Source: Euglena gracilis
Lineage: Eukaryota
Direction: 5' to 3'
Length of the DNA stretch: 64,000 nt
NCBI GenBank assembly: GCA_039621445.1
Contig: CP154954.1
Location: 49,269,847-49,333,846 of the forward strand
The notes under the pieces were generated by a model, which was not told the origin of the DNA, ran no database searches, and was given only the letters and a program-made list of their open reading frames with translations. Shown in pieces: positions 1,014-63,700 of the stretch; position 1 is the first letter of the stretch; each line of letters begins with the position of its first letter. The position numbers and the translations under genes were made by a program.

Positions 1014-2089
1014 GGTATGCGTGTGGGAATTGTCCCGACCTGGAATTGCCCAATGCACCACTCCACGTGCGTGATTTTGGCGGAATATGCAAAACTGGCC
1101 TTTGCCTTTGCACTATTGCCAGCTGATGAAAAATGAATACTAGCAGCTCTCTGCGTGACACGTTGCACTCCGCCCTTCTGTTCTTTCACCATGGGGGTGC
1201 AGTGTCATTTTGCTAGTGGGGCGCAATGGGCAGAGCAGAAATAATGAGCAGAATGAGACATCATCTTCCCTCGCGTTATTTTTATCTCTCGCTTGCACTG
1301 CACTCTTCATTGCGAACCCGCAATGTCAACCCGTGGTTTACACAATTTACCCCCCCCCCCCGTAAAAGAAAGAACGCTCTTTTTTTTAAAAAAAATCTGT
1401 CGAGTCGGACTTCCAGGGGGGGTCTGACTTTTGGGCTTTGGAGGTCCGGCTGCCGGGGTCATCTGCCTCGCCAGATCTATTGCGGCCGGTCGTGTTTGAG
1501 GCCACATCCCAAGCCCCCCATCCCTGCGCCCCGGTCTGCGCCCTCACACCTCCTCCCCCCTCTTTGGTGACTTTGGGCCGTGGAGGCGCTGACCGCTGGC
1601 CAGGCGTCTTTCCCCCCCAACCCTGGCCGCCCAAAGGTATTTCCGATTTGTGAGCCACATGGGATTCTACCCCCCGTCTGTCTGTCGTCCTGCCAGCCGG
1701 CACCTTTTTGGCACCTTGCTCAGGGCTCAGAGCAGAGGACCATTATTCAGGTTGCCGGACCACCTTTTTGGTCGACTGAAATGAAACGTTGGGTATCGCT
1801 TTGTCCAGTGGGATCAGCCCATAAACTTTCAATTGCAAAGTGCAAAAAAAATTCTGGGAAATTTTGCAGAGTCTTCCTACGAACGCTCGAAATGGTTTCA
1901 AAATATGATTTGAGGCGGGTTGAAAGTGAGGTTTGCACCAGAATGATGTATCCCCCAGAGTATGCCCCCCAACCGTTTGGGTTTGGGAAAATAGGATGTG
2001 ACGGCCTTCTGGTCCCTGTTCCAGTGGGTTTTGGGAAGTCTGGCCACTGGGTTTCAAGGCCGCTGAACGCAGGGGGGGGGGCTTCAAAG

Positions 2090-5000
2090 CACGCCTGCGG
2101 CCGGCAGAGCCCGCACTGCCATCTCATTCTCTCGCCGTCGCCTTCCTCGGCCTCCCGAGCCAAGCACCCATGGAATGACTGAGCGCGACTGGCCGTGACT
2201 GGGCGTGACCAGGCGTGACCAGGCGTGAGCGGGTGTGACTGGGCGTGACCGGGCGTGACTGCGTCTGGGATTCTGGATGACCATGGGTGCTTGCCCCAGG
2301 CCTCCCCTCGCTCCGCCTTCCCTTCCCTTCCCTTCCGCCCGGATGGCCCCCCTTCCCCTGCCCAGGGCCAACCGGGAAGGCCAGCCCCAGCGGGCGTCGG
2401 CCCCCTTCCCGGTGTGCCCGAGCCGCCGTTCTTCAGGTTGAAGGTCCCTTCGGTGCTGAAGGAATTTTTCTTATGTTTAACTGTCTAATTACCCTGGCGG
2501 GTCCCCCCCCCCTGTGAACAGGGTTCGATGTAAAGAAGGGAAGGGGTAGAGAGGGGGCTCCTCTACCACCACCGCCAGCAGGAGCAGCCTTGCCAGAATT
2601 TCGAGGCAGTGCAGGGGGGATGTCTTTTTGTATTTTTTGCGCATTTTTTTGCGCAGTTTTTCCAAAAAAATGTGCATTTTTGTGCATTTTATCACATTTT
2701 TTTGCACATTTTTTTCCCAATACTTTTCCAGCGCATTTATTTCTTTCTGGCACATTTTTTTCGTCATTTACTTTTTTTTCACCACATTTATGTGAATTTT
2801 ATCATTTTTTGCGCATATTTTTCGAGCCGGGCTGGCACATCCCCCCCCCCCCCGGCCATTCTTCCCCTCTTCCCTCAATCAAATCCTGCTGAGGGGCTGC
2901 CTCCCCCCACCAGGCGTTCCCACACAGCCCTGCCCTTGCCCCCCGGCTTGGAGCCCCGGCAGCGGCCCTGGGCCCAAGCCACCGCTCCACAGCCAGCGCT
3001 GACCCCCTCCTCTGCCTCGACTCGCCGCACTCCTCCTCCCCCCCACGGTGGAGCGGGCCCCTTTCTCCCACCTATGCGGCTCCCACGGTTGCCCCCATTT
3101 GACTGGAACTAACAGTTGTATATTCGGCGGGGGCGGCGCCCCCGGCTCTTCCCGGCCTTCCCCAAGATGCGCAGGCCTCCCTCGGCTTTGGGTGGCGTCT
3201 CGATGAATGCGGTTTTCTGGCATTTGGTCCCATGATCGTCTGCGCTGCCATTTTGTTTTGTAGCTGGGGTTTCCAAATTTACACGATTGTGCCTGTGCAC
3301 ATCAACGCATGCGCATGTCTCAGGTGCAGGCACACAGCGTGATCTTTGCCCCTCCCCCCCCCCCATTCCCCAGTCATAAGTTCTCGGCTTTTTGGACTGG
3401 TTTGTATTTGACCAATGACCCCTGGGGGGGGTTGTCGTGTCCCCGAACCGAGCCACCGGCAGCGCTCCGCTGGGGCTTTCGGTGCTGTCGGCCCCAACCG
3501 CCAGCCATGGCCCGGCCTTTTCGATGTTCCGCTGCAGGCCCCCCGCACGACCCCGGCCGACCCTCTGCCGCCGCCCCTGCCCGCGCCCCGCTGCCCTGCT
3601 GGGCTGAGTGAAAATAGTACCACAGGGCATGCCCTTCCAAGATGATGGGGTCGGGCACTGCAAAGAGCTGATTAGCTTTCTTCAAATGGCCAGCTTGCAG
3701 GGGGCAAGGGGGATGCTCTCACACATCTCGGCACCGCGTGCACCACGTGGCGTACCGCATGCACTGTGTGAGAAAAATCATTTCCGATTGTGCAATTTTC
3801 ACATATTTTTTCATCAGCACCTCACTTTTAGTCAATTCCTTTTTTTTGTTGGGCTCCATTTTTTGGCCATCTTTGGACCACTTTTGGCCACTGTCAGCCA
3901 CTTTGGGCAGCATCTAGCAATTTAACCCACGTTTGGCCTGTTGCATGCAATTTTTTCATCAATTTCTGGCTTTTTTTTTCATTTTTTTGGGCCCATTTTT
4001 GGCCACTTTTGACCATTTTGTGCCCACTTGCACAGATGCAATGGCTGTTTGAACAGAATCATTGAGATGTGGTGGCAAAACCAGCCGAAATGTGGGCTGA
4101 AACCAGCTAAAAACAACCAATGTCACCCAAATTGATATGTTGTTCCAATTTTGGAATCGCTGGGAGTTTTTTGCAGGTGTTTCTCTCTCGAGGGTTTTCG
4201 GTTTGTACCTGATTCTTGTCACGTGGTGCCACGCGGTGCACCCGGTGCCACACGTGGTGCAGAACACACCGATCCACGCGGTGCGGGAGCATCCCCAAGG
4301 GTGAATGACTTTTAACTGGACCCACATGAATTTACTGTTTCTTCGGACCACCTCCTTTTTGTTGTTGTTTTTTTTTTTGCTTCGGTGTGGGGTGTGACAG
4401 CCTGCCTGGCTGGGGAGTGTCCCTGGGTGTGAAGCATCGAGATCCTTTCCCCACCGTAAAATGCATGGTATGGCCAGGGGATAGGGAGTTTGTTTAAATG
4501 AAAGGGAGGTCTTTTTTTCCCCGAGGACAGCAGCTTGAGGACCTCGAGGATGGGCGGTTTGGTCTTGAATGGGGTTGAAAATTAAAGGTAGGAAAATGCA
4601 CCTTGTGATGCGATTTGTGGATTGCTGATGGTCCACTAAAAATGTGGAACCACATTTCCACACAATTTGTCGCACCCACAAAAGTGACCAGTGGATGCCA
4701 CAAGTCACTTTCCCCCCACTTCCAACCCATTTTTCGCCCAGAAAGGTCGAATTCCGATTCAGGTTTTCCAACCTAATGGCCTCCGTGGGTCACCGGACGG
4801 CCACCCTCGACGAAAACGCAAGGTTGGCTGCCCCGGGAGGGCGTCCCCGCCCCCAGCGTCTCACTGGTCGCAAACCCTTCAGCTCCCCCCGCCAGGCTTC
4901 TCTTTAACTTGGAAGACCCCCCCGGGGGGGAGAGGGGGGCGTCCGGGTCCGGGTCCGGGTCCGGGTCCGGGTCTGGGCCCTGGGCCGGCAGCCCGGGTAT

Positions 5001-8000
5001 GAAAAAGAAGCCTGCCCCCCACTGCCCTGTCGTCCCTCCTTTGGCTTCCAGTGCCCTCCAGTGATGCTGCCTGCCCCCCAGCCCAGAGGCTGCCTGTGGG
5101 ATGGAGTGCTGGCTCGTGAAATCCTTCCGGAGGCGTCAAAACCGGTGGACAACAATTGCTCTTCAGGGAATTCTTTGAGCCAGACCCCACCCCTCCCCTC
5201 CAGGGGGGGTCCAGGTCGCCAGCACCTTTTCCAGCCACGAAAAAAAGATGCTGGCTTTTGTTCCAGCTGGCAAAATATGTTTAAGCTGGTGACCTGGGGG
5301 TGGGTCCAGCCAGACCCCCCCCCCCGGCAGTATATTTTGAACCCCCACAGATATATCAAACTAAGACTGCCCTAAAAGTTGACCAAAAATGTATATTTTT
5401 TGTCTATCTGTGTATATACATTTTTTTATGTTCAATGCAAGTTTGTGCACGAGCGTATATGGAATTGATTGCTGGGTGGAATGGATGGGTGTGCCGATGG
5501 ATAAATGGGTGGGTGGATATAAGTGTCGATGTATGGATGAACCAACATGCTCCCCCCCCCCCTGCCGTGGTGCTTGCCCCCGGCAGTTGCCCTCCACATT
5601 TACCAATTCGCCCAGCACTCTATGTTTAATTTGCAACCTTGTCACCACATTTTTGAGTTTCATTTGCCTTATTTTCCACATTAACACCGAAGTCGTACCA
5701 AGTGAATTGCCCCACCCCCAAAAGTTGGCACCCGCACTTTGTGTTTAACCATGGGGGGGGGGGGCTCCAGGGTCCCCACATGCACACTTGGCACATGGAG
5801 TCGGTGTGTGCAAAGGCGGGCTGTAAGCTTAATACCAGTGCGGCGGCCTCTGCCTTCTTCGTCGCTCTGCGCTTCAACGCTACCACTGGCGCCTGGAAGC
5901 TTTCCCCCCCACTCATCCTCAATGTCGCCGACCAGCCCACATTGACCCCTGACTCACTCTCACTTCTCTGCATTTACCACTCTGCCTCCCTCGCCAACCT
6001 CCGTCTGATTACCTTTTCAGCCCTCATCCACCTGTCCTCATTTGACCATTCCTCTGAGCACTGCCCCTGGGATTGATGCAGTGGGGAGATACTTAGGGAT
6101 ACCCAGGGTGGATGGGAATTTGAACAGGGGGAGATTCTGTGGATATTTTGTCACATTTTCTCCTTGATTGAACCAAATTCATTAAATGAATTCAAATAAA
6201 GAAAAAGAGAGTGTGGTGCATTTTTTTTGGGCTATGAAATGAAACCGCTGCATTGAAGGATCATCTGGAATTCCCCATCTTTTTTTAAGGCAGTCAGAGA
6301 AACAACAGGAAAACATCTTCGTAATCCCTCCGTTTAGTGCTCGCTTTTTGCAGATTTTGTTCGGAAAGAACAAAAACCATTTTGACACATTTTCCTTGCA
6401 TTTATTGCATTTTCCATGCATTTTCCTTGGCATGACACTGAATTTCTGCCTGTTTTCATTTCTGGCACATTTATTAGTGTCTGTTCTGCTGGCTTCAGGA
6501 TGAGTAATGATATTTGAAATTGAAGACGTAATTAAAATCGAGGCTAATTTGAGCCCACCCTGATAGATTTCTGAGAGGTGCTTTTTTGCATTCTGTGGGT
6601 GAAAAGCAGTGTGGGACGGCAAATTATCCGCCGAGCCAGATTTTTTTGTGGTGTGGTTTTTGACTTCCCCATGTGCACTACCTTGCATAGTGGCCTTTTC
6701 TTTTTTTCTTTTGCTTTGGATTTGTGTGCTTACCCCATGGCGCTCGCCACCTGAGGGAACCCCATCATCCCAGGTATGCGGGAAAACTTCCCTAATTCGG
6801 ATGATTAGCCATCGTCACAGCTTGAGAAACACACAAAACGAGATCCAAGAAAATTTTTTGTTGAAATTCCACGGAAAACAGGTCTCCGGTGTAGATTCGG
6901 TGCATTCCTCGTTGCATCACCTTTCAACGTTGCCGACAATGGATCGGGGGATGCCCTCGCGTGGAAATCGGTCCGCCACGCCTGCACCGTCGCTGCCCCT
7001 CGTTGTGTCCCGTGCTTCCCGGGGCTGCCCGGCTGGCCCTCTGAAAGTCGAACGGCGCAGTTGGTCAACAGTGGTCTGACCCCGTCCGTGCCCGAGGCCA
7101 TCCCTGTGGTCGGGCTGCCCAACAACCGCTCCGCAGGTCCCACGCCCCCCCATGCTTGCCGCGTCCCCGGCCCTCGCCCTCCTCCTCGCCCTGCTGTGCA
7201 GGGATGGATGGAAAGCCCTTCGCTATTGAGGTAGGTGGTAGGGGGGGATCGCTGAGCTCTTATCCCTTCAGGGTAAGAGCGAAGCTTACCCCTGGCGAAA
7301 CCCCCCCATCGCCTCCCCCCCCCCCCCAGGGTCGGGGCCACCTGGAGAACCGACGGATTATCACCATGATCCCGGCCCTGTTCCCGGAATTTTTTTTTCA
7401 ATCGCGAGCGACTGGATTTCTGGTTTCCGAATCACCTGGGTTTGACCCCCGACACACCGCCAGGCCCGAGTTATTCACGCGCGAAGGGGTCCAAACTGGG
7501 TAGGATCGGCGCCCCCCTTTTTAAGCCCCCCCCCCTTTGGACTCTGCCATTTCGGCCAAAAATGTCAATTTTCAAAATATCTCCAAAATGAAGCCAAATC
7601 AAACAAAATGTCCGGAGACCTAATTTGAAGCCCTTGGAACGCCCCATCTGCTGGTATTTTAATTTCCCCGCAACTCCCCGCCTAGCCCGAGATACGGCCG
7701 TTTTCGGCCCTGATGGCCGTTTTGTACACTTTTCCCACTGTCCGACTTGCCATTTTCGGCCAAAAAAAGTCAAAAAAAAAATCGAAATTTTTTTTTTGCC
7801 CGAAACGATGTTTTTTGGCCTCCCGGACCCGGAAAAACTGTTTTTCAGCCGAAAATGAGCGTTTTTCGACCCGCCAACGCCCCGTTTTGGGCCGCCAACC
7901 CATTGACTTTGGGTCAAAACCGGGTCAAAAAAGTCGAAAAAAGGTCGAAAAAATCGAATTTTTTTTGCTCGAAACGATGTTTTTTTGGCCTCCCGGACCC

Positions 8001-8943
8001 GGAAAAGGTGTTTTTTGAGCCAAAAATGAACGTTTTTCGACCCCTGGCGCCCCGTTTCGGACACAAAACCCTTGCATTTCAGTCAAAAGACCTCCATGGA
8101 GTGGGCCGGTGTATATGGGGGGTCAATGAAGGGGTGGGTGCTATCAAGAGCTCAGCACTATTCAAAACCTGGTCCCGACCCCCCCCCCCCCCCCGGGGGA
8201 GTAAGGTGGTAGGGGGGGGGGGCGGACCTCCCCCCCCCCTAGATGTTGGGAGGGGACCCCCCACCCCCCCTCCTTGACAGGTGCCAAAAATAGCAGAAAA
8301 TTTTTTTCCGGCGCTGTGCGCCGGAAAATGAGCAAAAACACCCCTTTGCTGACTTTTGGACATATTACCCATTTTTTGATGTGTTGGTGTTTTCCCCCAA
8401 ATAAACTTTCAAAAAAACTTCAAAAAAATGAGCTTTTTTGGATCGATTTTCAAAGAAAAATCAGGGATTCTTGACCGATTTCGACCCGATTTCCGGCCCT
8501 TTGCCCGTCCATGAAATCGAAAAAATTTCGCCCCCCCCCCCTCAGTTTCGAGGTAGGAGGGGGGGGTCCGACCCCCCCCCCCCCTGTGTGCACTGTGGCT
8601 GTTTTTTTGGTGCCTTTTATCCCTTCTTCTGGCCTGGCGCTGTTGTTCGCCTCTGGCACTTTTTGTCTGTGTGCGTGGAGGTGGCCGGAGCCTGGCGGGA
8701 CTTACCTTGTTTACGACGCCGGCCACCAAGCGCCCGCCAGGCACATACTCCATTTTAGTTAGGGGGGGTCTCCTTCGCCGTGACGACGCACCGGTTACTC
8801 TAGTCCACGACCCCAGCAGGTGTGGTTCCCAACTCAGTGCACAGGTCCACTCAATTAGGAACAAACTCGTGGGTAGGTCTGTTCCAGGCCCGGAGGCACC
8901 TCCCGGGGCAGCCCTGTCCCACAAGCACACCCACTTGGAACCC
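2090..8943 (+). CDS. Fragmentary multi-exon gene(s), Pro-rich hypothetical protein; may begin upstream of 2090
   Basis: GC-rich exon-like islands at ~2090, ~2880, ~3440, ~4776, ~5840 (AAASAFFVALRFNATTGAWKL) and ~6950-7136. In-frame GT-AG introns 7137-7201 and 7231-7329 give ...NNRSAG-MDGKPFAIE-GRGHLENRRIITMIP. Overall structure unresolved. Confidence 0.35.
2161..2293. mobile_element. Mini hAT-like MITE, CAAGCAC family
   Basis: Perfect 13-bp TIR CAAGCACCCATGG/CCATGGGTGCTTG; internal GGGCGTGAC(T/C) 10-mer array; degenerate TSD TCCCGAGC/CCCCAGGC. Confidence 0.8.
4893..5014. mobile_element. hAT-like MITE, possibly an intron
   Basis: TIR CAGGCTTCTCTTT/AAAAAGAAGCCTG; TSD CCCCCCGC/CCCCCCAC (7/8); internal (TCCGGG)n. 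Confidence 0.65.
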
Positions 8944-9092
8944 GGTCAGGCACCCCCCCTCCTGGGGGCAAAGGCGAACCTTATTTCAGCTGCCGGGTCC
9001 ACCCCCCTGGGTCTCCTTCCCCCCCCCCCCCCCCCCCCCCCCGTGTCGGGAGGGGGGTCCGACCCCCCCCCCTCAAGGTTTCCTATCCATCC

Positions 9093-10998
9093 CTGCTGCT
9101 GTGTGATCTGGCAGCGGCGCAGCCGAGCCCCACCCCGCGCTCCGACCAGGGTGTGCCTGACCCCCCCCCACGGTGCCGTGGGGTCACGGCACGGTACAGC
9201 GGCAGCATGGACAAAAGGTGAACACCGCCCCCGACTCAGCAACCGCTATGGCTTCGCCCCGCCCACCCGCCCACCTCGCATTGTGTCCTCTCACTCACAC
9301 CGACCATCAGTAATGGACAATGGCCGTGGGCCCTGCACACAATCCGGCCCACCGCCCCACGCCCCCCCCCTCCAAACCCAGGGCCGTACCTGCTGCAGTA
9401 CCTGAAGGGCACCTCCACCGCCTGCCTGGAGGCCCTGCCGAACCGCGTCAACGTCGCCCCGAAGTCCTGCAGCAAGACCGCCGCCCAGCAGTTCTATTAC
9501 TCTCCGACCCTCGGCGCGTTCAAGCCAGGCCGTATTTTACTCGGGTGCCGACCCCACCCCGGGGGGGGGGGTGCCTGTCTGGGCAGGCACTCATAGGCAC
9601 TCCGGAACCGCCCCCCCCCCCGGGGTGGTAAAAAACAGCCTGGTTCAAGCTGTTCCAGAAGTGCCTCGGCCTCCCCCCGGGCCCGGTGGGCGGCGGGCTG
9701 CAGCTGCTGACGTGCCCGGACCACGCCAACGAAAGTGTGGCGCACGCCCCCCCCCCCCCTGCCTGCACCGGCAGAAAAAAATGATGGAGGGTCTTTTGGG
9801 GGGGTTTTGAAAACTCGAACGTGCAGTTTTTTCCCGGATGGGAGGGGACAACACTCGATGTCGTTGAAGTTTCAAAAGTCCAGCACGAGGGAGACGAACG
9901 ATAGCTTTTTTGTGCATCTTCATGTCTTCCCCATTAATACAATGGGACCGAAAACTCAAACAGACCCCTCAAAGCTTCTGCTGATGTGGGGTATGTGCAT
10001 CTTCTATTTCATGCTTGGATGGTACCTTTGTGTCGTCTCTCATTTTCAAACCGTTTTTTGCTTGCCATATGTGGATTCCCCGGCCAGCAACGTCTGGAAG
10101 GCGCTCAGTCGCGCTGCCCCCCTCCAGATTTCAAGGCCACGTGGACGTGCCACCCGAAGCAGCGGGAGTGCTGTGTCGCGGCGAACAGCCACTACTGCGT
10201 CAAGATCAAGGACGGGACGTCGTGGCTGCCGGCGTGGCTGCCAGACGTGGACATGGGCAGCCCCAGTGTGTGCCGCCCTCCTGCCTGCACTTTCGTGCGA
10301 CGCCTCGTGTGGGCTTGGTCTTGTCCACGTTATGCTTCTGAGGCCAGACAAACGGGGGTCAAAGGAGCCTGTTTGCCAATAATGTGTGCCAATAATGCGG
10401 TCTTTTGCAGTGGTTGCAGTGGTGGGTATAAGTTTTTGAAAGCAACGTGGAATAAACAATTAAATGATAAATGATGAACTCAGGGTTTATTTTATGGCTT
10501 GAGGGCAGTCATTATTTGGTTATCAGCGTCAAACTCAAGATATTGGCCATAAAATCAGTTTGCCAGTCCCTGCAGGCATTTATTTTTGAACTATTTATAA
10601 AAATATAAATACATGTGCAATGTTAGTAAATTCAATAAATTGAATAAGGTCAACGATAAATAATATGCATATATTGTTTTTTATATTTATGCAATGGTTT
10701 TAGATATGTTTAAAATATTTGCAAAATGCATATATTTTTCCAATCTGTGCACAGAGCCAATTTTCTCGACATCAGTCCATTCTTCGGATGGACGGATGCG
10801 ATCACCTCTGCTATGCCATTTTCTCTGTGTGTGAGATTCTCTGCACTATTCTCTCCGCCTCGCACAGACGGCATCTGGCGGATGGTGGCCTACTTCATCC
10901 TCTTCACGCTCCTGCTGGACCTCGTGATGTGCGGCATCAAGCTGGCCATCAGTCTCCTCCGGTTCGTGTGGGGACTCCTGGAGAAGCAGGAGCCCGAG
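9093..10998 (+). CDS. Multi-exon Cys-rich ricin-B (beta-trefoil)-like protein with C-terminal TM segment; ends uncertain
   Basis: Exons ~9093-9150, 9382-9522, 9648-9734, 10128-~10255, ~10850-10998 give LLLCDLAAAQ...ACLEALPNRVNVAPKSCSKTAAQQFYY...KCLGLPPGPVGGGLQLLTCPD...ATWTC..., then MVAYFILFTLLLDLVMCGIKLAISLL. The CL-x-C-x-QxF/W pattern resembles ricin-B repeats. Confidence 0.55.
9526..9642. mobile_element. hAT-like MITE forming a non-conventional intron (9523-9647)
   Basis: TIR CAGGCCGTATTTTAC/GTAAAAAACAGCCTG; perfect 8-bp TSD GTTCAAGC (9518-9525, 9643-9650). Removing the element plus one TSD restores GAFKLFQKCL. Confidence 0.85.
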
Positions 10999-12597
10999 GT
11001 GTGTGGCCGGCAGGTCCGCCAATGCACGCCTCAGAAATGAAAGATGAATTTGTGTGCCCCCGTTGCCCAAGGACCACGCGCTGCCACTCTCCTCCTTGAC
11101 CTGCGTTCTTTTCCTCCTTGTCATGGCTGCTGCTTTGCTTGGGCCCTGAGGTGTAAACGAGGCCCCAAAGGTATCGGTTTGCTGAGGTCCCCCCAGACCC
11201 ACCCATGTGCACAAAAAAGATGGATGGAGATGGAAAGTCGAACACATGAAGTTCGAACATACAGGTTCGGTGGCCGGCCAGCTTTGCAGTGTGCTTCATG
11301 TCCTTGCTGGGTTTACCGTGCGAAGATGGTGACCGGGTTCCCCCAGTTGCATTTACACACTGGCAGGGGAGGGGAAAATTGCAGACTGCATAATCTCGCA
11401 TAATCCCGTATAATTTGCTTTTTTTTGTGAGAATGCAAAAAGAACAGGCCCTGAGAAGCAGCAGTTTTTTTCCAGAAAATAGGTTTTGTCATTCTTGAAT
11501 CATATTTTCCATTGTTTTATAACACTTATAATTGAGCATTATTCAGGTAGGAATATTTTGGCCCGCATTATCCCGCATAATCCTGCACAATTTTCAAGGT
11601 CAAAATTGACCCAAAAGCACGTCATTATGCAGGATTATGCGAAAAAAATTCGGGGTGTAAATGAAATGAAAAATTGGAAAATCCAGGGGGGGGTGACGAT
11701 CCTATTTTATTTGTTGTGACGATCCTATTTTTCGAGTCTGTTTGACCGACCTTTGACCCCAAGAGTTTTCAGGGTTCCCAAACGCCCAATTCCCCAATAC
11801 TTCATTAATTGTGAGATTGCTCTCCAACTAGACATTTCACATGACTCCTGGGCCTCAAAAATGCTAAAGTATCAGTCTCATCTTTGGATTTCAGTCGTTT
11901 TTACAGGTTGCGTGGGGTCAAATTTGGGGTGAGGCGAGTGATTCTTGGATTTTTGCATTTGTCGGGTTTTATTTGGGGGGGAATTATTTGGTCTGGGAAG
12001 GGGGGGGCTGGACTATAACAAAAATGGAAATTTGACTGGGATGTATGTCACTCTCCTGGGCTTTTGGAACTCGAACTAGCCTCCTTCCCCAAGGACGACG
12101 ATGTTGCAGTAACCCCCCTATCAAGCCACTGGGATATAATTGGAGCTGGGGGGGGTCCAACCCTCCTCAACCTCAAACTGACGATGGCTGAGAGAACCTT
12201 TCAAATGTGGATAAAATGCAGAATATAACAGTTTTGAAACGCCATAATTGCAGTTTTGAACTGTGTCCAAAAAATTCAGGACCAGAGGATTGTTTCGACA
12301 ACTTTTCACAGCATCTTCACCCTCAACCAACTCCCAAACCATACCCTCAGAACATAACAAGGTCAAAAATTTTGAATAAAAAAACGCACCCAAACAAATT
12401 TTGTTTTGTAAGCCTCCTTTGGTGATTTGACGGGCCCGGAGCGTAGTTTGGGCGTGACTGGGTGTGTCTCGCCGTGGCTGAATCTGGGATTCTGGCCATA
12501 GGTGCTTGGCTCCCACCGTCGCCCTCCCCTCTCTGCCTCAGCTCGAGGTGGAGCCGCAGCCGTGGGGGCAGGAGCGGCAGCCGCTGGCCCACTGACC

Positions 12598-22390
<9,793 letters not shown>

Positions 22391-24699: not shown

Positions 24700-27600
24700 G
24701 TGGTTACACTCCGGAGCCCAGCCCCTGCGTCGCGGACGAGCTATGCCACCATTTGCCGCATGACACCTGCGGGCAGTTCCTGAAGAAGTACATCGAGTAC
24801 CTCATGATGCCAGAGAAGGGCCAGTCATCGGGCTGTCCCGTCTATGGTCCCCCCCAACTTTTCATTTTTCTGTCACACCACAAATCTCCAAATCCGGCTG
24901 GACCTGGGCCAGGATTTGGACACGTCCCTCGGCATACCTGAGTGGGGGGGTTTTTTAAGCCCTCCCCCCCACCCCCGACCAGACCAGTGTTGGGTGCCCC
25001 AGCCTGCCGCAGAGAGCCGGTGGGAGTCCCCCAGCACGCTGTACTTCCTGCTGTACTTCCTCGCCATCACGCTGACGATGTGCATGCAGCTCGGCCTGCT
25101 CGTCATCGTCTCCGTCGCCCTGCGCGACGCGGCGGTGGACAACGCCGGCGAGGTGGTGGTGGTGACCCGCCCCGGGCGTGTCCCCTTGCCAAGGGTGGGT
25201 CGGGCGGGCGTTCCGCTGTCCACATGAGCCGGGACTGTCTACCTCCCTGGCTTCCCATAGTCATTTTCCAACGCAACCACCTGTTTGTTCTTTTTTTTTT
25301 CAACAGCCTGTAGCCCCCTGGAACAGACTGAAATTTAAGGCGGTGCCGACCCCACCCTGGGGGGGGGGGGGCTGCCTGGGCAGGCACTCCAAGACACCCA
25401 GATCCAATCCCCCGGGGTTGGGCACATGTCCAAAAGTGCCTGGGCACTCGGCCAAGGCACTTCCGGCGCCGAAGTCGCCAGAAGCCCAGAAAAGCCCATT
25501 TCTGGGTACGTTTTGGCCCACAACCAGGCAGGCACCGACCCCCCCCCCCCGGGGGGGGTTATGCCTGCCTGCCTGCCCAGGCACTCCAGGGCACTCCGAG
25601 CCCCCCCCCCGGGTTGGTCAGGTTCAGCCAGCAAAAAAACTCTGATTCCCCCGTCCATTTTCTGCTTGTATTCCAGGCAGGTCGGTCCTGTAAGCAAATC
25701 TGTTTGATGTGAAAAGGTCCTGGTCGCCACCGACGCTTTTCGAACTCCTGACGTCATCGTCCCCAGCAACCAGGCTCCCTCCCCTGGCCCTGCCCGGCCG
25801 GAGGGTGGTGGTGCTCCTCGTGGTGTTCCTGCGGCTGCTCACGGGGGACATTGCCCACGCCTCCATCCTGTTCCGCGTCGTGGACGTCCTGCTGGCCTGC
25901 GGTGTGCGCAGCCCCGGCCCTGCATTGCGCCGGACTGTGTGCTGGGGCCAAACCCTCTCCCCCCCAACCTGCGGCCTCGGCTGGCGCCGGGGCGGACGGA
26001 GGAGAAGGGGTGGCGGGCGCGGTTCGTCGCGGCCTCGCCCCTGCTCATCACCACGTCCCTGGCCGCGTTCCAGTATGCCATGGGCCTAGGCCCAGGGGGG
26101 GGGGGGGGAGTCTCCGACCTTCCTGGAAAATGCCGCTTTGCGGGCGGGGCGAACGCGTGGGGGGTAGCTCTTGGCCCGGCCATGTGGCAGGGGACCCCAC
26201 CCTTCTTTGGCGCCGTGGCCAACGCCCCCGCCCCCCTGGCCGGGAGTGTTCTGGCTGTCGTATGTGCTAATCGGGTCGTCCCCGGACACGCTGTCCACCA
26301 TTTCCAACGCCCTGGTGGTCACGTTTGTGGAGGAGGTCAACGAGTACATGGTGCCCAGCCCTTTGTCCAGCCACACGGATTGGGGGGGATTCCTGAGACC
26401 CTTATGAACTTGGCGCGGGGTTCTTTCGTACACCAAGATTCCCTCTCAAAAGGCTGAAGCTGGTAGGAACCCCGGGGGAATCCTGCCAGCCAGCCAGAAG
26501 AATTTTTCCAGCCCTGTACCCCCCCCCCTCATCAAGGAGTTTTAATTTCTGTCCAACTGCCCTCTCTTGCAGCAGATTTTTCAGTTTTGAATGAGGCAAA
26601 AATGGCTGAAAACAGGCCGAAACAGGTGTTAAGTTGGGCAGCCTGGCTGTGTTTTTGGATCAAAATATTTAGCGCCGAAGGTTGTTTTTTTTACAGTTTA
26701 GGAACCCCAACAATCCCCCCATATGGTTTGCATTTGTCGTGGAGACCGGAGGGGCGGGGGTGCAGAGGACGAGGGCTGCCGCCAGACTTCCTCCGCTCCC
26801 AGGAGGCCCACCTCCGGCTGGCGGCCCTCGTGCCCGCCAACCGCATGCGCCGCGTGCTGGTGCTGACCGTGCTGGCGTACGCGCTCTTCGTCCTGCTCTT
26901 CCCCCTCCTCCTGTCCGTGCTGTTCATCACGTTGTGGACCCTCAGCATGGCCAGGCCGGGCCGCAGGATGGATATGCACCCAATCTTTGTTCCGACAGCT
27001 CGCGTCAAAGTTTGGACCCCGGAGTGGGGCTATTGGTGACCCCTCCCTCCTCAGGGGTGGTTAGGGCTGAGGAGGCACTCTCCTGGAGGCGCCATGCAGC
27101 GTGTACCGACCTCCATCCCATTTAGGCTGCGCATCTAAGCAATTCCTAAGCATTTAAGCTTTTTTCGCCGATTTGCGCATTTTTGAAAACTGCAGCTGTG
27201 CAGCCTGCAGCGACCTCATCCCGCCCCTCCCCTCCTTCCCTCAACCCGAGTGGCGCACCCTGCAGTCGCTGCTGCTTCTGCTGGGCATCATCGCCTCGCG
27301 GGAGACGAAGCGGAAGCTGCACTTCATCCTGGACTTCGTCGTGTTCTACTCGTGTCTGCCCACCCTTCTGCTCTGAGGCGTTTGGCGCCGCTTTCTGTCC
27401 GCCGGTTCTGAGAGGTGGGAAAACCGATAGCAACCTATGGCAGAGCGTAGCTTAAGAAAATTTGACCCCCCCCCCCGGGCCGGGGGGTCCAGCCAACCAG
27501 CAGTTTTTTTCCCAGCCCCGGACCCCCGTCCCCCGCCCTTTGGGCAATTTTCTGGACATTTTTGCGCTTTCGATTTTTCATCACCCAGATCGACCCCTGG

Positions 27601-28500: not shown

Positions 28501-30647
28501 GACCCGCAGCAGTGGGGAGACCGTCCACCTCCCGTTGAGCAGACTGGGCAGATGGCCGGCAAACGTAATTGGGGAGCAGCCCACCTCCTTTCCGGTGCCT
28601 TCCTTCGACACCAGGTGGCCACTTTTGGGCATTGTTAGCCGACCGGGGGGGGGGGGTCTGGAGCAAAAAAAAACGAGTCAGTCAGTCCAAAAAAAAATCC
28701 GTCGGTCAGCCCGCCAGCCAGCAGCCGTTTTCCGGCTTCGGACCCCTCTCCCATCGACGAGTTTTGCAGCCGTTGGAAGGGCGGCTGGTCGATAGTGGAT
28801 CCTGCCTTTTTGCAGGGGTGCAAAGGTTGGCTGTGGGCACAAATTTTTGGTCAAAAAGGTAAAACGTTTTCCCCCCATAACCAGTTTTGGGTTTTTTGCA
28901 GTGTCGACTTTTGATTAATCGGGCTAGTTCCATTCCGGGGGGGGGGTCAGCCAACAGCCTTTTTCCAGCCAGCCCAAATTTTCCAGCCAGTGCCAGCTAT
29001 CCTGTCCTCGTGGGGACCTGTCTCCTTCCCCTGTCTCCTGGCTTTTTTTTGAGAATTTCTGCATTATTTTATTGAAAGGAATCCAAACCCTCTTTCCCAA
29101 GTCAAAAAAAATTGAAGGTGCTTTTTTCCCCAGCCACAAACACGCAAATAAATCAAAATTTTCTGATTTTTTTAGTTGGTGGGGAATATCCTCTAGTCCT
29201 GCACTCGCGGCCTGTCCTCATTGAAACTTGTTGAATACCTCTGCATTAGCCAACTTGGCTTGAGACAGTTTCCCGGGGCGGCATGCACCCCCCCCCTGGC
29301 TAGAGGACTTTTTTTTTGGTAACACAACCCTATGTCCAGAACAGATGTTGCCTGTCGTTCGACCGAGGGGGGAGGAGGGTAAGCAAGGAAGGTACGGGAT
29401 ACCTCCCCCGGAGCCCTGAGAAACTTCTGCTTCAAATTCCCCAAAAGTGAACTGGAAAAATTGTTTTGTTGTTTTTGTTTGTTTGTTGTTTTGGGGGGGC
29501 TTTCCTTCCTGGACGCCTGTTGAATGGCAGTGGACGTGACCGATCAACCAATGCTGGATCTCCCGCTCCGCAGGGAGGAGGAAGCTCATTATGCACCTGC
29601 TCAACCTTTCCATCGGGTTTTTTTTGGCCCTATCTTATTTTGCACTACTCCCTCTACTTACCAAGTGACCTGGTCAGCTTCTTGTCACATAATTGGATGA
29701 TGCATGGGGAAGGACTGGCATGGGACCAATGAGCTTCCATCACAACAGGTGCCGTACAGAAGTGTTTATTGTTGCTCTTCTTCAACCAACTATCCATGTC
29801 GTCGAATTCGGGTATGACGGATTTACAAGTGCTACAACAGGTGCAACATAAAATGTTATGTCATCAAAAAGACAAATTCCGCCAACCAGAAACAACAGGG
29901 TTGCAGTCAGTGAAATGGCCTTTTCCCCGGAGGGCCTGGGGTTTGGGGGTGGGTGAGTTCACCTTTGGCCTGGAGGGGTCCCCACCATTCCGCCGCCACG
30001 TCACGTCACCTTGACAGGAGGGCCATTTCCGCCTGGGCGATGCACAGCGGGAAAAAACAAAGCAAAGCTCCCTTTGCTTGGCCCCGCCGGCGTTTATGTT
30101 GGCCGGAGGCGTCAACTGTGAGACCCGGTTGGTGGGTCGGGACGTCTCCCCCTGGCTTTGTGTCGAACCAGCCCAGTTTAGGGAACGTTTTTTTTTGTTG
30201 GCATTTTCCCAATGCTTGGTGTGATAATTCCAGAGAGTGTCCCTCCCCCTCCAGTGTTGATTTGAGGTTCTGAGTGCCGTCTTGGGTATGCATCCGCGTC
30301 TTTCCCCACCGGCCCCCTCTGCCCTCCATACATGTGGTGTGTTGTTTGCATGGCACGCGATACTCACTCTGCACCCCATTCCATGTCCACTGCGAAATGC
30401 ATCAATCTCTGTGAACCTTCTCCAACTCCAGCCAAGGCTTTTCTGAAAGGGGCAGAGAGTCCCACCCGATGATCTGTCAACAAGCACTCTGACCCAAACT
30501 CGGGAATCCCATCTATCAAAGATTGTTTCTACAGAACTCAATCTGATTTGTTCATTTGTATATTTGGTGTAGGTCATCAATGCACTTTGTAGCACATACA
30601 GCACAAACCTGGGTAAGGGCGGTGCGGGTTTAGAGGATGGTTATGAC

Positions 30648-32367
30648 CAAGCACCTATAGCTAAAATGGCCTAAAATGGCCTAAAATGGCCTAAAATGGC
30701 CTAAAATGGCCTAAAATGACTTTTTGACCCCCTATAGATGGGGGTCCCTAAAATGGCCTAAAATGGCCTAAAATGGCCTAAAATGGCCTAAAATGGCCTA
30801 AAATGGCCTAAAATGGGAAAAATTCTGTTGCACAACAATTTTTTTGTGAACTACTGAAGCCATTCAGGCAATGACTTTCAATGTCCTTTGTTAATGCGGA
30901 CGGCAAACAGTGGATTTGGTGGAGGAGCACAGCCCCACAAGGCCCATGGTTTTATCCTAATAACACTCGTATCAGTCCCCAAATTCACAGCCCCAACCTT
31001 TTTTTGGTGGCTGAATTTTGAAGGTTTGGACAGATTATTTTTTCTTACTCCTATCTTGTTGGTTTGCACCGATGTTTGTTTCGCAAATAATGAAACGGAA
31101 GCATGGGGAAAAAGTCAAAACAAAGATGAAAGATGTTGGAAAAATCTCAATTGAAATATAAAATTCTAGCATCATATGAATATAACTTTTGTAAGTAAAT
31201 TTAATGTTTCAATTTTTATGAATAGACATAAAATTATTATGGATATTCTATGTATTTTATGTGGATATTTCGTGTGGGTATTTTATTATTATTAATTTTG
31301 TTGATATATTTTCCATATTTATAAAGATTTTATAGTCATCAATTTTTAATTGTAGAATTAAAAATATAACATTAACATTATATTTAATGCAGTTTTAGTA
31401 ATACAAATAACACATGTTTTCATACAATACAATCTTAGTAATAAAAGAGAAATAATTTGAAATTAATAAATATATGTACTAAGTAAAAATAATTTTTATT
31501 GATATAATGTGTAATTGTACAATAATTATTACTGCAATCATATTATCAATAAAATTGGAATAATTTTGGGATATATAATATGATAGCATATGATATATGT
31601 TATCCGTCAATAGGTACAGGATTAGGTTTATATATTTCACTTTTTGCCTGGTGAAATTCAATTTGACTTTGGCATTGTTTTAGGCATGTATATCATTCAT
31701 TTTATTATTATGATAAGTATTTAAAGAATAATTATTAAGATCTGTAATACAAATAAAAATTCATTGTATTTTTTGGAAATAATTTTTTGTTTGTATTATG
31801 GATCTTAATAATTATTCTTTAATATTTATCATAATAATAAAATGAATGATATACATGACTGAAACAATGCCAAAATCAAATTGAATTTCATTAGGCAGCA
31901 GCATTATCTTTCAGAAAAAATGACTTCTTATTGCGAAATTCCGCAAAATGGTGTAGAATTCACAAAAAAAAACGGGAGCCTTTTTGGTAGCACAAATTAA
32001 AAAAAATTATTTTTTGTCCAACGTTTTTTTTCTCTGAAAATTTTATCTACCGTAAATTCTTATTGTTCAGAATTCCTCTATGAATATGAATATAGACTTG
32101 CCGAGCTTCCCATTGTTTTGAATTTTGCATGCTTTTTTGGATGTACATTTGTTGTTACTGAACAAGAGAAGGTTTGCACACGTTATGATACTTTTTTCGG
32201 GACAAAAATGACGCAAAATTATGATTTTCAGAACCCCCACCTATACCTTAAAATGGCCTAAAATGGCCTTAAATGGCCTAAAATGGCCTAAAATGGCCTA
32301 AAATGGCCTAAAATGGCCTAAAATGGCCTAAAATGGGGAAATTTTTGGGCTTGACTATAGGTGCTTG
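30648..32367. mobile_element. Non-autonomous hAT-like element, CAAGCAC family (1.7 kb)
   Basis: Perfect TIR CAAGCACCTATAG/CTATAGGTGCTTG; perfect TSD GTTATGAC (30640-30647, 32368-32375); (TAAAATGGCC)n arrays near both ends; AT-rich core with no transposase ORF. Confidence 0.92.
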
Positions 32368-32528
32368 GTTATGACTGGGAGAATGGTCCCGGAGTGCGTG
32401 CAAGCCCCCTCTTTTCTAGCACCACCTTTATCTAAGCCCCCAGTTGAGCCCCATCTTTTATAAGGTTTTTTTTGTGTCTTTTTTAAGGAATATATCAGGA
32501 AATTTCTATGTTTATAATATATATATAT

Positions 32529-32641
32529 ATACATACATACATACATACATACATACATACATACATACATACATACATACATACATACATACATACATAC
32601 ATACATACATACACCTATATACATATGTATGTATGTATGTA

Positions 32642-32700
<59 letters not shown>

Positions 32701-32965
32701 ATGTGTGTGTGTATGTATGTATGTATGTATGTATGTATGTATGTATGTATGTATGTATGTATGTATGTATGTATGTATGTATGTATGTATGTATGTATGT
32801 ATGTATGTATGTATGTATGTATGTATGTATGTATGTATGTATGTATGTATGTATGTATGTATGTATGTATGTATGTATGTATGCATGCATGCATGCATGC
32901 ATGTATGTATGTATGTATGTATGTATGTATGTATGTCTGTCTGTCTGTCTGTCTGTATGTATGTA
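32529..32965. repeat. Compound (TACA)n / (TCTG)n / (TATG)n microsatellite
   Basis: Directly visible; source of the HTYI/MYVC pseudo-ORFs. Confidence 0.95.
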
Positions 32966-34225
32966 TCTCTGAATCCTGATTTGGTGAGATTTTGTTGATT
33001 TTTGCGCCAACATGTCTGTAAGTTTAGCAGTGGACCCCCCCAAATGGGAAATTTGTCTTTTTCAACGGCCCCCTTGTCGGTTTGTCTCAGCACCCCCTAT
33101 TTTGACAAATTCAGCACTACCACCCCAGTTCTTCCCCATCTTTTTTTAGTTCTTAGACAAGGGGGGAGGCATGTTGCCTTTGCAGCGACCCTTGAGGTGC
33201 AACATGTTCTTTGAAATGAACTCAGTGGCATGTTATTTTCCGAACCTATGCGTACAGAAGAGCCTGCTTCAAACCATGACTCACTCACCGTAGCGAACCG
33301 TCTTGACCCTTTTGACCCTTGTAACATAGACCAGAGATAGTTCCTCCCAGAGCTTTGGCTTTTTTGTATGATCCTTGTCGTTGTTTTGTGCATTTCTTTG
33401 CCTTAGCAGTTTTTATTTTTAACAAAACATATCTCACTGATGGGTTATGCATTTTGTTCGGATCAAAAATGGATTTGCTGTGAACATTGTTGGACCTTTT
33501 TTTTTCACACCATTGACTGGGTGGATTTCTTTGCCATCTGACTGAATCAGTGGCCGCTGGGGTTTCCTTGGCTGTTTTTCACACCGATATTCCATTTGCA
33601 AGTATAACATGCGTAAGCTTAGCCTTCATGAAAATTTGGCGCCTTTTTTGGAGTTTAAAAGCATAATTAATATCATTTACTTGAGAAATCAATCACCTCC
33701 AGGGGATGGGTAAGGATCATTTTTGAGAAGGATTTTATCCAATCCAAAGGTCATGTTTGGGAAAGGGCACCGATTCTTAGGTCGAACTTTTCTTTTGGTG
33801 CCTTCGGTGCCGAAGGATTTTTTCCTCGCGATGCTGCGATGGGTGGGGGGATCAATCCACCCCCACCAGGCCTTCCTGTACAGCCTCAGCAACAGACTTA
33901 AAACCAGGCAGTCACTCAGAAGTAACCAGTCAACCACTTCTCCCCCCTCCCCGGTAAAACTTGCGCAACTTCACAATGGACACGCTCAAAGGTCTCACAC
34001 ACAGGGCACGGTCGAAGGGCACGCTGAAAGGCACTCAAAGGGCCGTTCTCTCACTGCATCGCGAAATGTGTTTCAAGTAGTTATGTTCGGCATCTGCGTC
34101 ATAGCCACGCTGAATTAAAAGCGGTGGGGGGCACCCCCCCGGCCTACACCCTCCTTGTGCGGACCCTGCCCCTGCCCCCCTGCCCAGCCATCGCCCCGGC
34201 CGCCTGCGGGGTTGCATGACGTGAA

Positions 34226-37200: not shown

Positions 37201-40035
37201 GAGATTCATTCAACTCAGAGGGGTCGAACCGTTTAACACCAGTTCAACCCCTCCCCCCCCCCCGGTGATTTTTGAGACTGGTGGGTAGGTTCAGCCGCTG
37301 GACCCCCCCCCCCACCTGTGAGTCAAGGGGAAAATTCAGGGCTGATTTTGGGTTGGTTTTGATGGGTTGGTGTTGGTGTTGGTCGACCCCCGGGGGAGGG
37401 GGTTCGTGTTTGACTGGGTTCTCAAACAAAATGGGTGGGTAAACCTGGGGAAAGGTGCCAGCCCCGGGGGCTCACCAAGAGTAAGTGAATCTGGGAGATC
37501 CACCCCTGTCGCCTTTTTTTTTGCCTGCCGGCCACCCCCTTTTCACCACCCACCGCCCATATCAAAGTATATTTTTTTCTTTGTTGTGCTTCCTGGTTGC
37601 CTGTGGCTGATTCCCAATGTTGGCTGCCGACAATTTCCAGGGCCACAGGCTCAAATAGTCTGGGGATCCTGACACCTTATCAGGCTCAAACCCAACACAA
37701 CCTGGGTTTGGCAATTTTCGGGGGGGGGGGATGTATTCGGCGAGGTGTCAATTGAGCTTTTTGGTTCTGCAAAAAAATGCTTGGCACACCTTTCTTTACC
37801 CCCCCCCGTCAGAAGGCGATTTTCTTGTGGTTTGGCCAGTCCGCAGAGTGTTTATTTAGGGCCGGAAAACCCTCCTGTGCTCATTTTTCATCATTCGTAT
37901 TCATACGCATAAATTCATTCACTTCTTTTTTTCATTTGAAACAAACGCTGGGGCTTTTCGGCGTCCTCGGGGCTCGGCTGGGTCGCCGGCAAGCACCTCT
38001 GATGATGCTGGGCGATGCTGGGCGATGCAGGGCGATGCTGGGCGATGCTGGGCGATGCTGGATTTTTGGAGACCAGAGGTGGGGTTCCGATGCTGGGCGA
38101 TGCTGGGCGATGCAGGGCGATGCTGGGCGATGCTGGGCGATGCTGGCATTTTTTTGTATATTTTGGAGAATTGAACCATTTTGGGGATAATTTTCCCACA
38201 AAGCTCCAGTTTTCCACCCATTTTGGCCATTATGGGTCAATTTTGGGCTAATTTGGGGGCTATTTGTCACTGATTTGGCCAATATTGGGCTCATTGGGGC
38301 CTTTTTGAGCAGATTTTATGGCATTTTGCTTCTTTTTGGTGATTTTGGGTCATTTTTCACAATCTTTTGTGGACATTGTTGGCATTTTTGGGCAATTTTT
38401 GGTTATTTTGGTTGCTTTTTGGGCTTTTTGTGGTCAATTTTGGGCTTTTTGTGGCCATTTTTTGGCTTTTGTGGTTATTTTGGCTTGGTCAGGAGCCAAC
38501 GGATGAATACTGGACAGATACTGGACAAGATGCAGATGCTGGACAAGATGAACTGGATGCAGGCAGTGGACAAGATGCAGATGTTGGACAAGAAGCCGAT
38601 GCTGGACAAGATGCAGATGTTGGACAAGATGCAAATACTGGACAAGATGCCGATTCTGGACAAGATGAACTGGCTGCAGACACTGGACAACATGCAGATG
38701 GTGGACAAGATGCAGTTGCTGGACAAGAAGTAGATGCTGGACAACGTGCAGATGCTGGACAAGATGCAGATACTGCACAGGATGCAGATGCCGGACAAGA
38801 AGCAGATGGTGGACAAGATGCAGATGCTGGACAAGGCAGTGGATGCAGGATGCAACGGATGCAGATACTGGACAAGATTGAGACGCAGCCGAAGCCACTC
38901 CCTGCAAAAGCCCGGCCTTGGAGCTCAATATATTGGACAACACAATCGACTGGTCGGATACGGCCACACTTTGCTGTGTCTTTCCTTTGCTGGTTTAACC
39001 TCTGCACCACATCCTGTGCCGGCAAAAGCAGCAGAAGTGGTCAAAAAGTGGTCAAAAAGCAGGCAAAAGTGGGGTAAAGTGGTCAGAAAGCAGCAAAAGT
39101 GGTAAAAAAAGGTGGGCAAAAGTGGGCAAAAGTGGTCAAAAAGCAGCAAAAGTGGGCAAAAAAGTGAAAGTGATCAAAAAGCAGCAACAATGGCCAAAAG
39201 TGGGCAAAAAGTAGCAGACATGGGCAAAAGTGGTCGAAAAGCAACAAAAGTTGTCAAAAGTGGTCCAAAAGCAGGCAAAAAGGGCCAAAAGTGGTCAAAA
39301 AGCAGCAAAAGTGATCAAAAAGCTGCAAACGTGGTTGGAAATGGGCAAAGGTGGGCAAAAAGCAGCAAAAGGTGGTCAAGAAGCAGTCAAAATTGGTCAA
39401 AAGGCAGCAAATGTGGGCAAAAGTGGTCAAAAAGCAGTCAAAAGTGGTCAAAGTGGGCAAAAAGCAGTCAAAAGTGGTCAAAGTGGTCAAAAAGCAACCA
39501 AAGGTGGCCAAAAGTAGCCAAAAGTGGGCTAGAGCGGCAAAAGTAGCAGGTATTATAGGTACACCTTCAAGGGCTCCAAAGGCGATGCTGGGCGATGCTG
39601 GGCGATGCTGAGCGATGCTGGGCGATGCTGGGCGATGCTGGGCCCAAGGGCATGGCTGACCAGAGGTGCTTGGTCGCCGGGGGCCGCCCTGCCGGCGGGA
39701 CCAGCGCCGTGGTGGAGCGGGTGCTGCAGAGCCAGATCAAGGAGAGCGTCGTGAAGGAGTGGCTGGGGCCAGGCCGGCGTCCCCTCTGACCTGGACCCTG
39801 GGATACTGTCATTATAGGGGCCTGCCACATACCTCTGTCAGGTCATCAAGCATCTAAGTGCCTGACAGGCGACAATTTCCTGGGGGGGATGCTCTCACAC
39901 TCATACACACACATGTCCAAACAAAAGGTTTCTTTTCTTAACGGCTGCCACTGCCCCTGCTCCCTGCTCCCCAGCTGCTATGAAGTCCAAATCTGCCGGC
40001 CCACTCCTCCAGCCGGTGGAGGACGAGTTACGAGG
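34226..40035 (+). CDS. Multi-exon hypothetical protein; 3' end uncertain
   Basis: Exons 34226-34284 + 34617-~34715 (MPFYVNILLDRTLEDLGKIR-SMVDVSRAATAAAKNVNLLLQ), ~35765-35860, ~37005-37143, ~37943-37986, 39678-39766, 39972-~40035. Introns 34285-34616 and 39767-39971 follow the CAG+4/CTG-8 rule and join in frame. Confidence 0.6.
37990..39672. mobile_element. Non-autonomous hAT-like element (CAAGCAC family) occupying a whole intron
   Basis: TIR CAAGCACCTCTG/CAGAGGTGCTTG; perfect TSD GTCGCCGG (37982-37989, 39673-39680); (GATGCTGGGC)n arrays at both ends; internal 18-bp minisatellite and degenerate GTGGTCAAAA repeats. Confidence 0.9.
38510..38878. repeat. 18-bp minisatellite (CTGGACAAGATGCAGATG)n inside the element
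   Basis: About 20 degenerate units visible; produces the LDKMQM / GQDADA pseudo-ORFs. Confidence 0.9.

Positions 40036-55699: not shown

Positions 55700-63700
<8,001 letters not shown>

Follow-up and report, generated by a model that had tools for sequence, protein, structure and literature searches.

We examined a 64,000-nt stretch of the Euglena gracilis genome (GenBank assembly GCA_039621445.1, contig CP154954.1, positions 49,269,847 to 49,333,846 of the forward strand; hereafter the window, numbered from its first letter) and found that a 117-bp element with terminal inverted repeats (TIRs), lying between two exact copies of an 8-bp sequence in a coding exon, is skipped in RNA together with one of these copies. 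The skip of 125 nt restores the reading frame of the host gene, and relatives of the element lie elsewhere in the window. In two neighboring introns with unambiguous borders, the 5' cut lies 3 nt ahead of the paired triplets and the 3' cut 5 nt past them (CAA...TTG in 2158-2298, CAG...CTG in 5081-5857). We consider it highly probable that a non-autonomous cut-and-paste element was inserted here with a target-site duplication (TSD) of 8 bp and is erased from RNA by the euglenid system for nonconventional introns, with its spacers of 3 nt at the 5' end and 5 nt at the 3' end (N3/N5).

Anatomy of the 117-bp element

The 8-mer GTTCAAGC is present twice in the window sequence, at 9518-9525 and at 9643-9650. 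The 117 bp between the two copies (9526-9642) start with CAG and end with CTG, and the first 15 nt match the reverse complement of the last 15 nt at 13 positions. Neither copy can be extended: the preceding bases are C and G and the following bases C and T, so that the duplication is exactly 8 bp. The element is 69% G+C, carries an internal G/C-run palindrome and is non-coding, without an open reading frame (ORF) of its own. Being short and non-coding, with TIRs and a TSD, it has the properties of a MITE (miniature inverted-repeat transposable element). Its relatives in the window comprise one complete element (17973-18284, with a different duplication) and three partial copies. The first-pass annotation of this DNA, made from the letters of the sequence, had described a 117-bp element with CAG...CTG TIRs and a perfect 8-bp TSD inside a reading frame and had called it a MITE; the sequence confirms the description, and the TIRs, the exact duplication and the relatives fit the anatomy of a MITE.

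Folded as RNA, the 117-bp stretch forms a single long hairpin with its ends paired through the TIR stem. Its minimum free energy is -86.2 kcal/mol (z -6.07), a value reached by none of 200 shuffles. Reading through the element leads to a stop inside it (ORF 9222-9596), and deletion of 125 nt, that is, the element and one 8-bp copy, fuses the flanks in one open frame.

Transcripts skip the element and one duplication copy

RNA evidence for the region 1100-13000 was drawn from four studies, as two raw-read runs picked by species label (X21 and X24) and two contig sets (X15 and X18). The joint from 9517 to 9643, a skip of 125 nt at which 8 letters fit either side, is present in four of the four runs: 6 reads show it in X21 and 2 in X24, and one contig carries it in each of X15 (depth 38.3) and X18 (depth 15.8). 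Both contigs also span adjoining GT-AG joints and are therefore RNA-derived, the skipped form being the form that was assembled. Joint-supporting reads of the stranded run X24 have their first mates on the minus side only, which fits RNA of the plus strand. The first-pass annotation had proposed that splicing takes out the element plus exactly one TSD and had suggested RNA-seq across the 9522/9648 junctions as a check; the skip seen in all four runs and the restored frame bear this proposal out.

The borders of the 125-nt intron can be drawn in nine equivalent registers (GT..TG, TT..GG, TC..GT, CA..TT, AA..TC, AG..CA, GC..AA, CC..AG and CA..GC), none of which has GT-AG, GC-AG or AT-AC borders. 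In the register 9523-9647, CAG stands at +4 to +6 and CTG at -8 to -6, and the next exon begins with A (9648), a purine. An earlier remark that the 5' junction has no GT is thus correct only in part: the leftmost register does start with GT, as the duplication does, and it is the lack of conventional border pairs in all nine registers that stands.

The host-gene exons (..7190, 9096-9149, 9381-9517, 9643-9734, 10128-10265, 10868-10996 and 12540-..) join into one ORF that opens at an ATG near 7147 and reaches its stop in the last exon, and of the introns between them four are GT-AG and two are not. The ORF has a signal-peptide-like start and, downstream of the 125-nt intron, a hydrophobic stretch resembling a membrane span. 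From these sequence features we propose that the host is a small gene for a putative secreted or membrane protein. A Pfam search of eight exon/ORF pieces (E<=0.1) gave only a weak match to DUF1652, below cut-off at E 0.049, in one of the four exon pieces.

A second element spliced from the same gene

The signal-peptide region of the host gene contains another, 1,897-bp element with inverted repeats matching at 13 of 15 positions, and it too is spliced out as element plus 8. The joint from 7190 to 9096 skips 1,905 nt (1,897 + 8), with 8 letters fitting both sides, and is found in all four runs (2 reads in X21, 2 reads in X24 and contigs in X15 and X18).

As a separate observation inside this element, reads jump backward from 7942 to 7785-7793 with few extra letters between (in X24, 4+16 and 5+12 reads), and depth at 7785-7942 is far above that of the exons, with a contig word depth of up to 706. 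These back-jumps could reflect a copy-variable tandem duplication, or else a transcribed, highly repeated module that yields back-spliced or circular RNA.

Direct repeats of 8 bp exceed chance across the window

Chance matches were assessed by three scans of the window. The first took CAG..CTG pairs with a TIR match of at least 12/15 (n = 168). Flank repeats of length 8 were found at three pairs exactly and at one with a single mismatch, and exact repeats at lengths 5-7 and 9-13 were absent. The second started from exact direct repeats with no terminus assumed and used five block shuffles as control; at k = 8 it returned 11 matches, compared with 0-3 in the shuffles, and 8 of the 11 start with CA[AGT]G. 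The third took CA..TG pairs with an inverted repeat of at least 10/12 (n = 7,565, many from microsatellites) and gave 8 exact flank repeats in the 8-bp register against about 0.12 expected (7,565 x 0.252^8). The remaining lengths from 4 to 10 gave none, lengths 11 and 12 gave one each, and nine of ten control start dinucleotides gave no match.

Three matches at k = 8 (7328-8182, 31736-31807 and 38438-39290) were set aside as homopolymer, A+T-rich or internal-repeat matches, and a TIR pairing at 2911-5014 was dropped as a chance match within a C-run (inverted repeat 6/15). Continuity of an ORF over the other seven elements was uninformative, since this G+C-rich DNA has long open frames in all frames.

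Element families in the window

Eight elements of the window have perfect 8-bp duplications, and they belong to at least three families (Table 1). Near-exact flank repeats were found in addition at 4893-5014 and 53046-53197 (7 of 8 positions each) and at 53825-54654 (6 of 8). Family A, defined by CAAGCACC ends and short subterminal tandem repeats, has five members besides the RNA-verified intron 2158-2298, whose element contains subterminal 10-nt repeats (TRF array 2176-2261). Family B has CAGGGAT ends and includes 7199-9095 and 48190-48496. Family C unites the 117-bp element with the 312-bp one at 17973-18284; its partial copies lie near 25325, near 25525 and near 58010-58132. Three RNA-verified introns are drawn from three families (A, 2158-2298; B, 7196-9100; C, 9523-9647), and their relatives lie outside the RNA-covered region. 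Long ORFs of the 1.2-1.9-kb elements are repeat-derived, and none of them is transposase-like.

The partial family C copy inside 57541-58793 ends on its 3' side at 58132, and a 5' end to match was not found, which suggests a nested or truncated insertion. We also noted six or more occurrences of a palindromic G/C-run module (a C-run, a G-run and a short GCCTG...CAGGC palindrome), some within elements and others outside them; its sites include 17984-18273, 25325-25630, 57920-58132 and a stretch within 9526-9642.

Table 1. Coordinates of the 117-bp element, its intron and related features of the window
Feature	Position	Strand	Remarks
Left 8-bp duplication copy, GTTCAAGC	9518-9525		Contributes its last 3 nt as the intron's N3 spacer
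117-bp TIR element, family C	9526-9642		CAG...CTG ends
Left TIR of the 117-bp element	9526-9540		13/15 against the right TIR
Right TIR of the 117-bp element	9628-9642
Right 8-bp duplication copy	9643-9650		Contributes its first 5 nt as the N5 spacer; next exon starts with the purine A (9648)
Nonconventional intron, 125 nt	9523-9647	+	Shown in the N3/N5 register; one of nine equivalent choices from 9518-9642 to 9526-9650
Upstream coding exon	9381-9517	+	Plus up to 8 nt of the duplication
Downstream coding exon	9651-9734	+	Followed by a GT-AG intron
1,897-bp TIR element, family B	7199-9095		Ends CAGGGATG...; exact 8-bp duplication CTGCTGTG (7191-7198, 9096-9103)
Nonconventional intron, no cut ambiguity	2158-2298	+	N3-CAA...TTG-N5; family A element 2161-2293, CAAGCACC ends; flanks 5/8
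Nonconventional intron, no cut ambiguity	5081-5857	+	N3-CAG...CTG-N5; flanks 3/8; exon starts with T
Nonconventional intron	1598-2102	+	N3-CAG (1601)...CTG (2097)-N5 in one of four registers; flanks 6/8
122-bp element	4893-5014		Flanks 7/8; RNA removes 131 nt, N3 + element + N6
312-bp family C relative of the 117-bp element	17973-18284		Exact duplication GTGGGGGT
Family A element, 1,720 bp	30648-32367		TIR 12/12; exact duplication GTTATGAC; lacks a long ORF
Family A element, 1,683 bp	37990-39672		TIR 12/12; exact duplication GTCGCCGG
Family B-like element, 307 bp	48190-48496		Exact duplication GCGGGAAC
Family A miniature element, 152 bp	53046-53197		Flank match 7/8; sibling of 2161-2293 (85% over 59 nt)
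278-bp element, CATG/CATA ends	55720-55997		Exact duplication TTGCTGAC
Family A element, 1,253 bp	57541-58793		Exact duplication GTTCTGGC; includes a partial family C copy

Relation to published nonconventional introns

The code of euglenid nonconventional introns has been defined by experiment as N3-CDG...CH'G-N5-6 with R, a purine, at the start of the next exon (Nomura et al. 2025; PMC12501133). According to the same source, the 5' spacer is strict, the 3' spacer tolerates 6 nt and, poorly, 7 nt, and such introns are spliced from a foreign exon, with restored protein function in knock-in cells. The positions of CAG and CTG had already been described (PMC11282704, PMC4770533), and removal is reported to be independent of the spliceosome, with a full-length circular RNA as product (PMC11282704). 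Weak rules hold at both junctions, a pyrimidine preceding the cut and a purine following it; A occupies exon position 2 in 43 of 55 introns and C exon position 3 in 30 of 55 (PMC4770533), and C is found at intron +3 (PMC11170887). Borders are ambiguous in 69-72% of nonconventional introns (PMC12501133, PMC11170887). These make up 71.8% of Euglena agilis introns, and their origin was still called unclear in 2025 (PMC12501133).

The 125-nt intron shares with the nonconventional introns of Milanowski et al. 2013/2016 and Nomura et al. 2025 the lack of GT/GC-AG borders, CAG at +4 to +6, CTG at -8 to -6, a hairpin joining its ends, a purine next to it and removal from mRNA; it differs in nothing of kind, only in keeping an intact 8-bp duplication and family relatives. 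The annotation's arithmetic, by which the spacers of 3 and 5 nt add up to one 8-bp TSD, agrees with the published code N3-CDG...CH'G-N5-6. Its further statement that any exonic insertion would be scarless at once is too broad: the code needs a purine at the exon start and tolerates N6, and the 4885-5015 segment is removed as element plus 9.

The closest published case is intron 4 of E. agilis gapC (strain ACOI 323), a recently gained nonconventional intron flanked, like ours, by eight-nucleotide direct repeats that are taken to indicate recent gain; there the repeats are read as double-strand-break repair, and the accessible portion of that paper gives neither an element family nor a link to 3 + 5 (PMC4770533). 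Introners of Micromonas, dinoflagellates and others are also TIR elements that enter an exon with a duplication, are spliced at once and have the duplication help to define the excised segment (PMC11282704). In those, however, the spliceosome reads GT-AG-type signals from element and duplication, whereas here a non-GT-AG system measures 3 and 5 nt, counted from the ends that pair.

A transposon origin of these introns, which the first-pass annotation mentioned as suggested before, is indeed in print, both as a MITE-origin hypothesis (PMC3935182) and in the mention of 'TSD-like' repeats (PMC11282704). In the literature searched, in which figures, supplements and subscription journals were not visible, we provisionally found neither the statement that 3 + 5 is the duplication length nor a demonstration of 8-bp-duplication element families as nonconventional introns.

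Proposed mechanism

We propose the following course of events. A non-autonomous 117-bp DNA element with CAGG TIR ends, one of a multi-copy family, would land in a coding exon, and insertion would duplicate 8 bp of the target, the mark of a transposase cutting with an 8-bp stagger. In the pre-mRNA, the ends of the element would pair as a long hairpin and place the duplicate copies next to each other. The euglenid system would then read N3-CAG...CTG-N5 followed by a purine and cut 3 nt before CAG and 5 nt after CTG. Cuts at these distances remove the element and exactly one duplication copy, so that the excised piece would be element plus 8 nt and the mRNA would return to its pre-insertion sequence. 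In this scheme the transposase, its superfamily, the exact cut sites of the 125-nt intron and the nature of the splicing machinery are what we infer.

Several observations weigh against this account. RNA-seq cannot place the cuts within the 8-nt repeat of the 125-nt intron, and most aligned reads are 95-99% similar to the window (280 of 363 in X21), a difference that lies in strain, allele or paralogue. Position 9540, inside the element, is G and not C in 22 of 22 covering reads (10/10 in X21, 12/12 in X24); the likely source of these reads is other family copies or another strain, and intron retention and splicing efficiency at the locus can therefore not be estimated from them. Two of the nine listed non-GT-AG joints lack the N3/N5 paired triplet. 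One is 4885-5015, which is removed as element plus 9 rather than plus 8, with CAG...CTG in N3/N6 and a purine at the exon start, and is not scarless. The RNA-supported non-GT-AG intron 3620-4852 has CAG at +4 to +6 and no CTG partner, and the exon after 5081-5857 begins with T instead of a purine. Flank identity (of 8 positions) at the nine listed joints is 8, 8, 6, 5, 3, 3, 3 and 2, plus 7 for 4893-5014 when taken at the element ends; at four GT-AG control introns it is 5, 2, 3 and 5, and five of the listed joints (5, 3, 3, 3 and 2) thus do no better than the controls. In this small sample, only young insertions are distinguishable by flank identity, older introns being without a clear duplication. 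Finally, a Pfam scan (E<=0.001) of 150 ORFs, chosen by composition and length from the 332 in the window with at least 100 aa, yielded no transposase and no other family.

The 4885-5015 excision falls within a C-run, and its joint is absent from the X18 contig; the case may represent an allele with another C-run length or true use of a 6-nt spacer that reaches a purine. A further RNA-supported non-GT-AG intron, 2371-2911, pairs GGG with CCC and is off the CAG/CTG rule.

Alternative explanations

Reverse transcriptase is known to jump at stable hairpins between direct repeats, and a hairpin of -86 kcal/mol flanked by direct repeats would suit such an artifact. That the 125-nt skip arose in this way and not by splicing is nevertheless extremely improbable. 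Two runs show the skip in assembled contigs and the other two in raw reads, the four coming from four studies; the frame stays open through the membrane-span-like stretch to the stop in the skipped form only; and introns next door that have no repeats are removed as well (2158-2298, 5081-5857). Splicing of this kind has, moreover, been demonstrated through restored protein function in knock-in cells (PMC12501133). We likewise regard as very unlikely that the intron arose when a staggered double-strand break was repaired with filler DNA, the explanation that PMC4770533 offers for its intron with eight-nucleotide direct repeats. Against it stand the membership of the inserts in families with conserved inverted-repeat ends, the exact 8 bp at all eight independent elements and the palindromic preference of the targets. 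A less remote alternative, still unlikely in our judgment, grants the insertion and denies that 3 + 5 = 8 has a causal tie to transposition: the machinery would measure from the stem, and tolerance of insertions in exons would filter for elements that duplicate 8 bp, with no co-evolution. Tolerance of 6 nt and, poorly, 7 nt in the 3' spacer (PMC12501133) speaks for such a filter, as do the one window intron that uses N6 and the elements of the same anatomy where the DNA is not coding-like, for example in the A+T-rich 30648-32367. On the other side, the published junction rules, mirrored at both junctions, would correspond to the same positions (5, 6, 7 and 8) of the two duplicate copies, because in the duplication model the cut lies between positions 5 and 6, and A and C at positions 7 and 8 would match the GT....AC target preference. 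A machinery tuned to the duplication and a filter on elements that survive in exons are hard to separate.

A different alternative concerns the mobilizing enzyme and would leave the splicing account unchanged. The annotation had called the element hAT-like, and hAT ends are often of the CAG/TAG type. In the window, the ends seen are CAGGG, CAGGC, CAAGC and CATGG. The duplication length is the one that hAT elements make: eight elements have exactly 8 bp and none falls in another register from 4 to 10 bp. The targets share a palindromic GT....AC preference: of the 22 half-sites pooled from only 11 sites, 14 have G at position 1 and 11 have T at position 2, where a hAT target would be of the nTnnnnAn / GTNCGNAC type. 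The 8-bp duplication, the CAGG ends and the GT....AC targets thus fit the hAT-like assignment; a P-like enzyme fits equally well, a Merlin-like one is conceivable, and the window ORFs scanned yielded no transposase. We give a hAT-like enzyme, our first choice, somewhat less than an even chance, regard a P-like one as unlikely and a Merlin one as quite improbable, and leave the remainder to others. That the enzyme is not hAT, being P-like, Merlin-like or from an undescribed superfamily that duplicates 8 bp, is a serious, if doubtful, possibility. In its favor, the P-element and hobo, a hAT element, both make 8-bp duplications at GT....AC-type targets (GTCCGGAC for the P-element and GTNCGNAC for hobo; PMC3276498), one window element ends in CATG/CATA, and the literature searched contained no report of hAT in Euglena. 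Two Merlin families (F1 and F2) with 8-bp duplications are known in E. gracilis as cut-and-paste elements (PMC8101967). Merlin has conserved 5'-GG ends and a duplication of 8-9 bp (PMC8101967); the duplication length fits, but all ends in the window start with CA, and the exact duplications fix the element boundaries. Maize Ac/Ds makes an 8-bp duplication and has ends beginning C/TAGGGATG (PMC3260210). Agreement with the start of its repeat extends over the initial 8 nt in the 1,897-bp element and the initial 7 nt in the 307-bp element, which speaks against a non-hAT enzyme, as do the short subterminal tandem repeats of family A, present also in Ac/Ds. The window elements resemble Ac/Ds and other hAT miniature elements in their duplication, short TIRs, subterminal repeats and GT....AC-type target, and differ from them in lacking an assigned transposase and in having several ends (CAGGC, CAAGC, CATGG) that depart from the Ac motif.

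Implications for the origin of nonconventional introns

A transposon source of nonconventional introns has been hypothesized since 2013 on inverted repeats alone. The window adds concrete cases, as one gene has two introns that are intact TIR-family members with perfect 8-bp duplications, both removed as element plus 8, and the 125-nt intron ties the non-GT-AG intron class directly to mobile DNA. We tentatively suggest that most euglenid nonconventional introns could be insertions of cut-and-paste elements that duplicate 8 bp, and that their noncanonical splicing code could be an imprint of transposition. If so, N3 + N5 would be the 8-bp staggered cut, and the mirrored rule of pyrimidine before and purine after the cut, the A/C at exon positions 2-3 and the C at intron +3 would be positions 5-8 of two copies of a GT....AC-type target. 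In the excised RNA circle, the two ends of the element would lie on either side of exactly one restored duplication. This would make the splicing system a device, of the host or derived from the element, tuned to erase one class of transposon from mRNA, which would account for the share of about 70% that such introns have in these genomes. With the duplication, the 3/5 asymmetry of the code and the ambiguous borders of about 70% of the introns would also find a simple explanation. The question of intron origin has become directly testable in any euglenid assembly with RNA-seq.

Other features of the window

An Rfam search over the whole window returned no matches. The block 30000-34000 is A+T-rich (36-39% G+C, compared with 50-63% elsewhere) and contains long (CATA)n-type microsatellites around its family A element, and another microsatellite of this kind is found close to the window's end, at 62400-63400.

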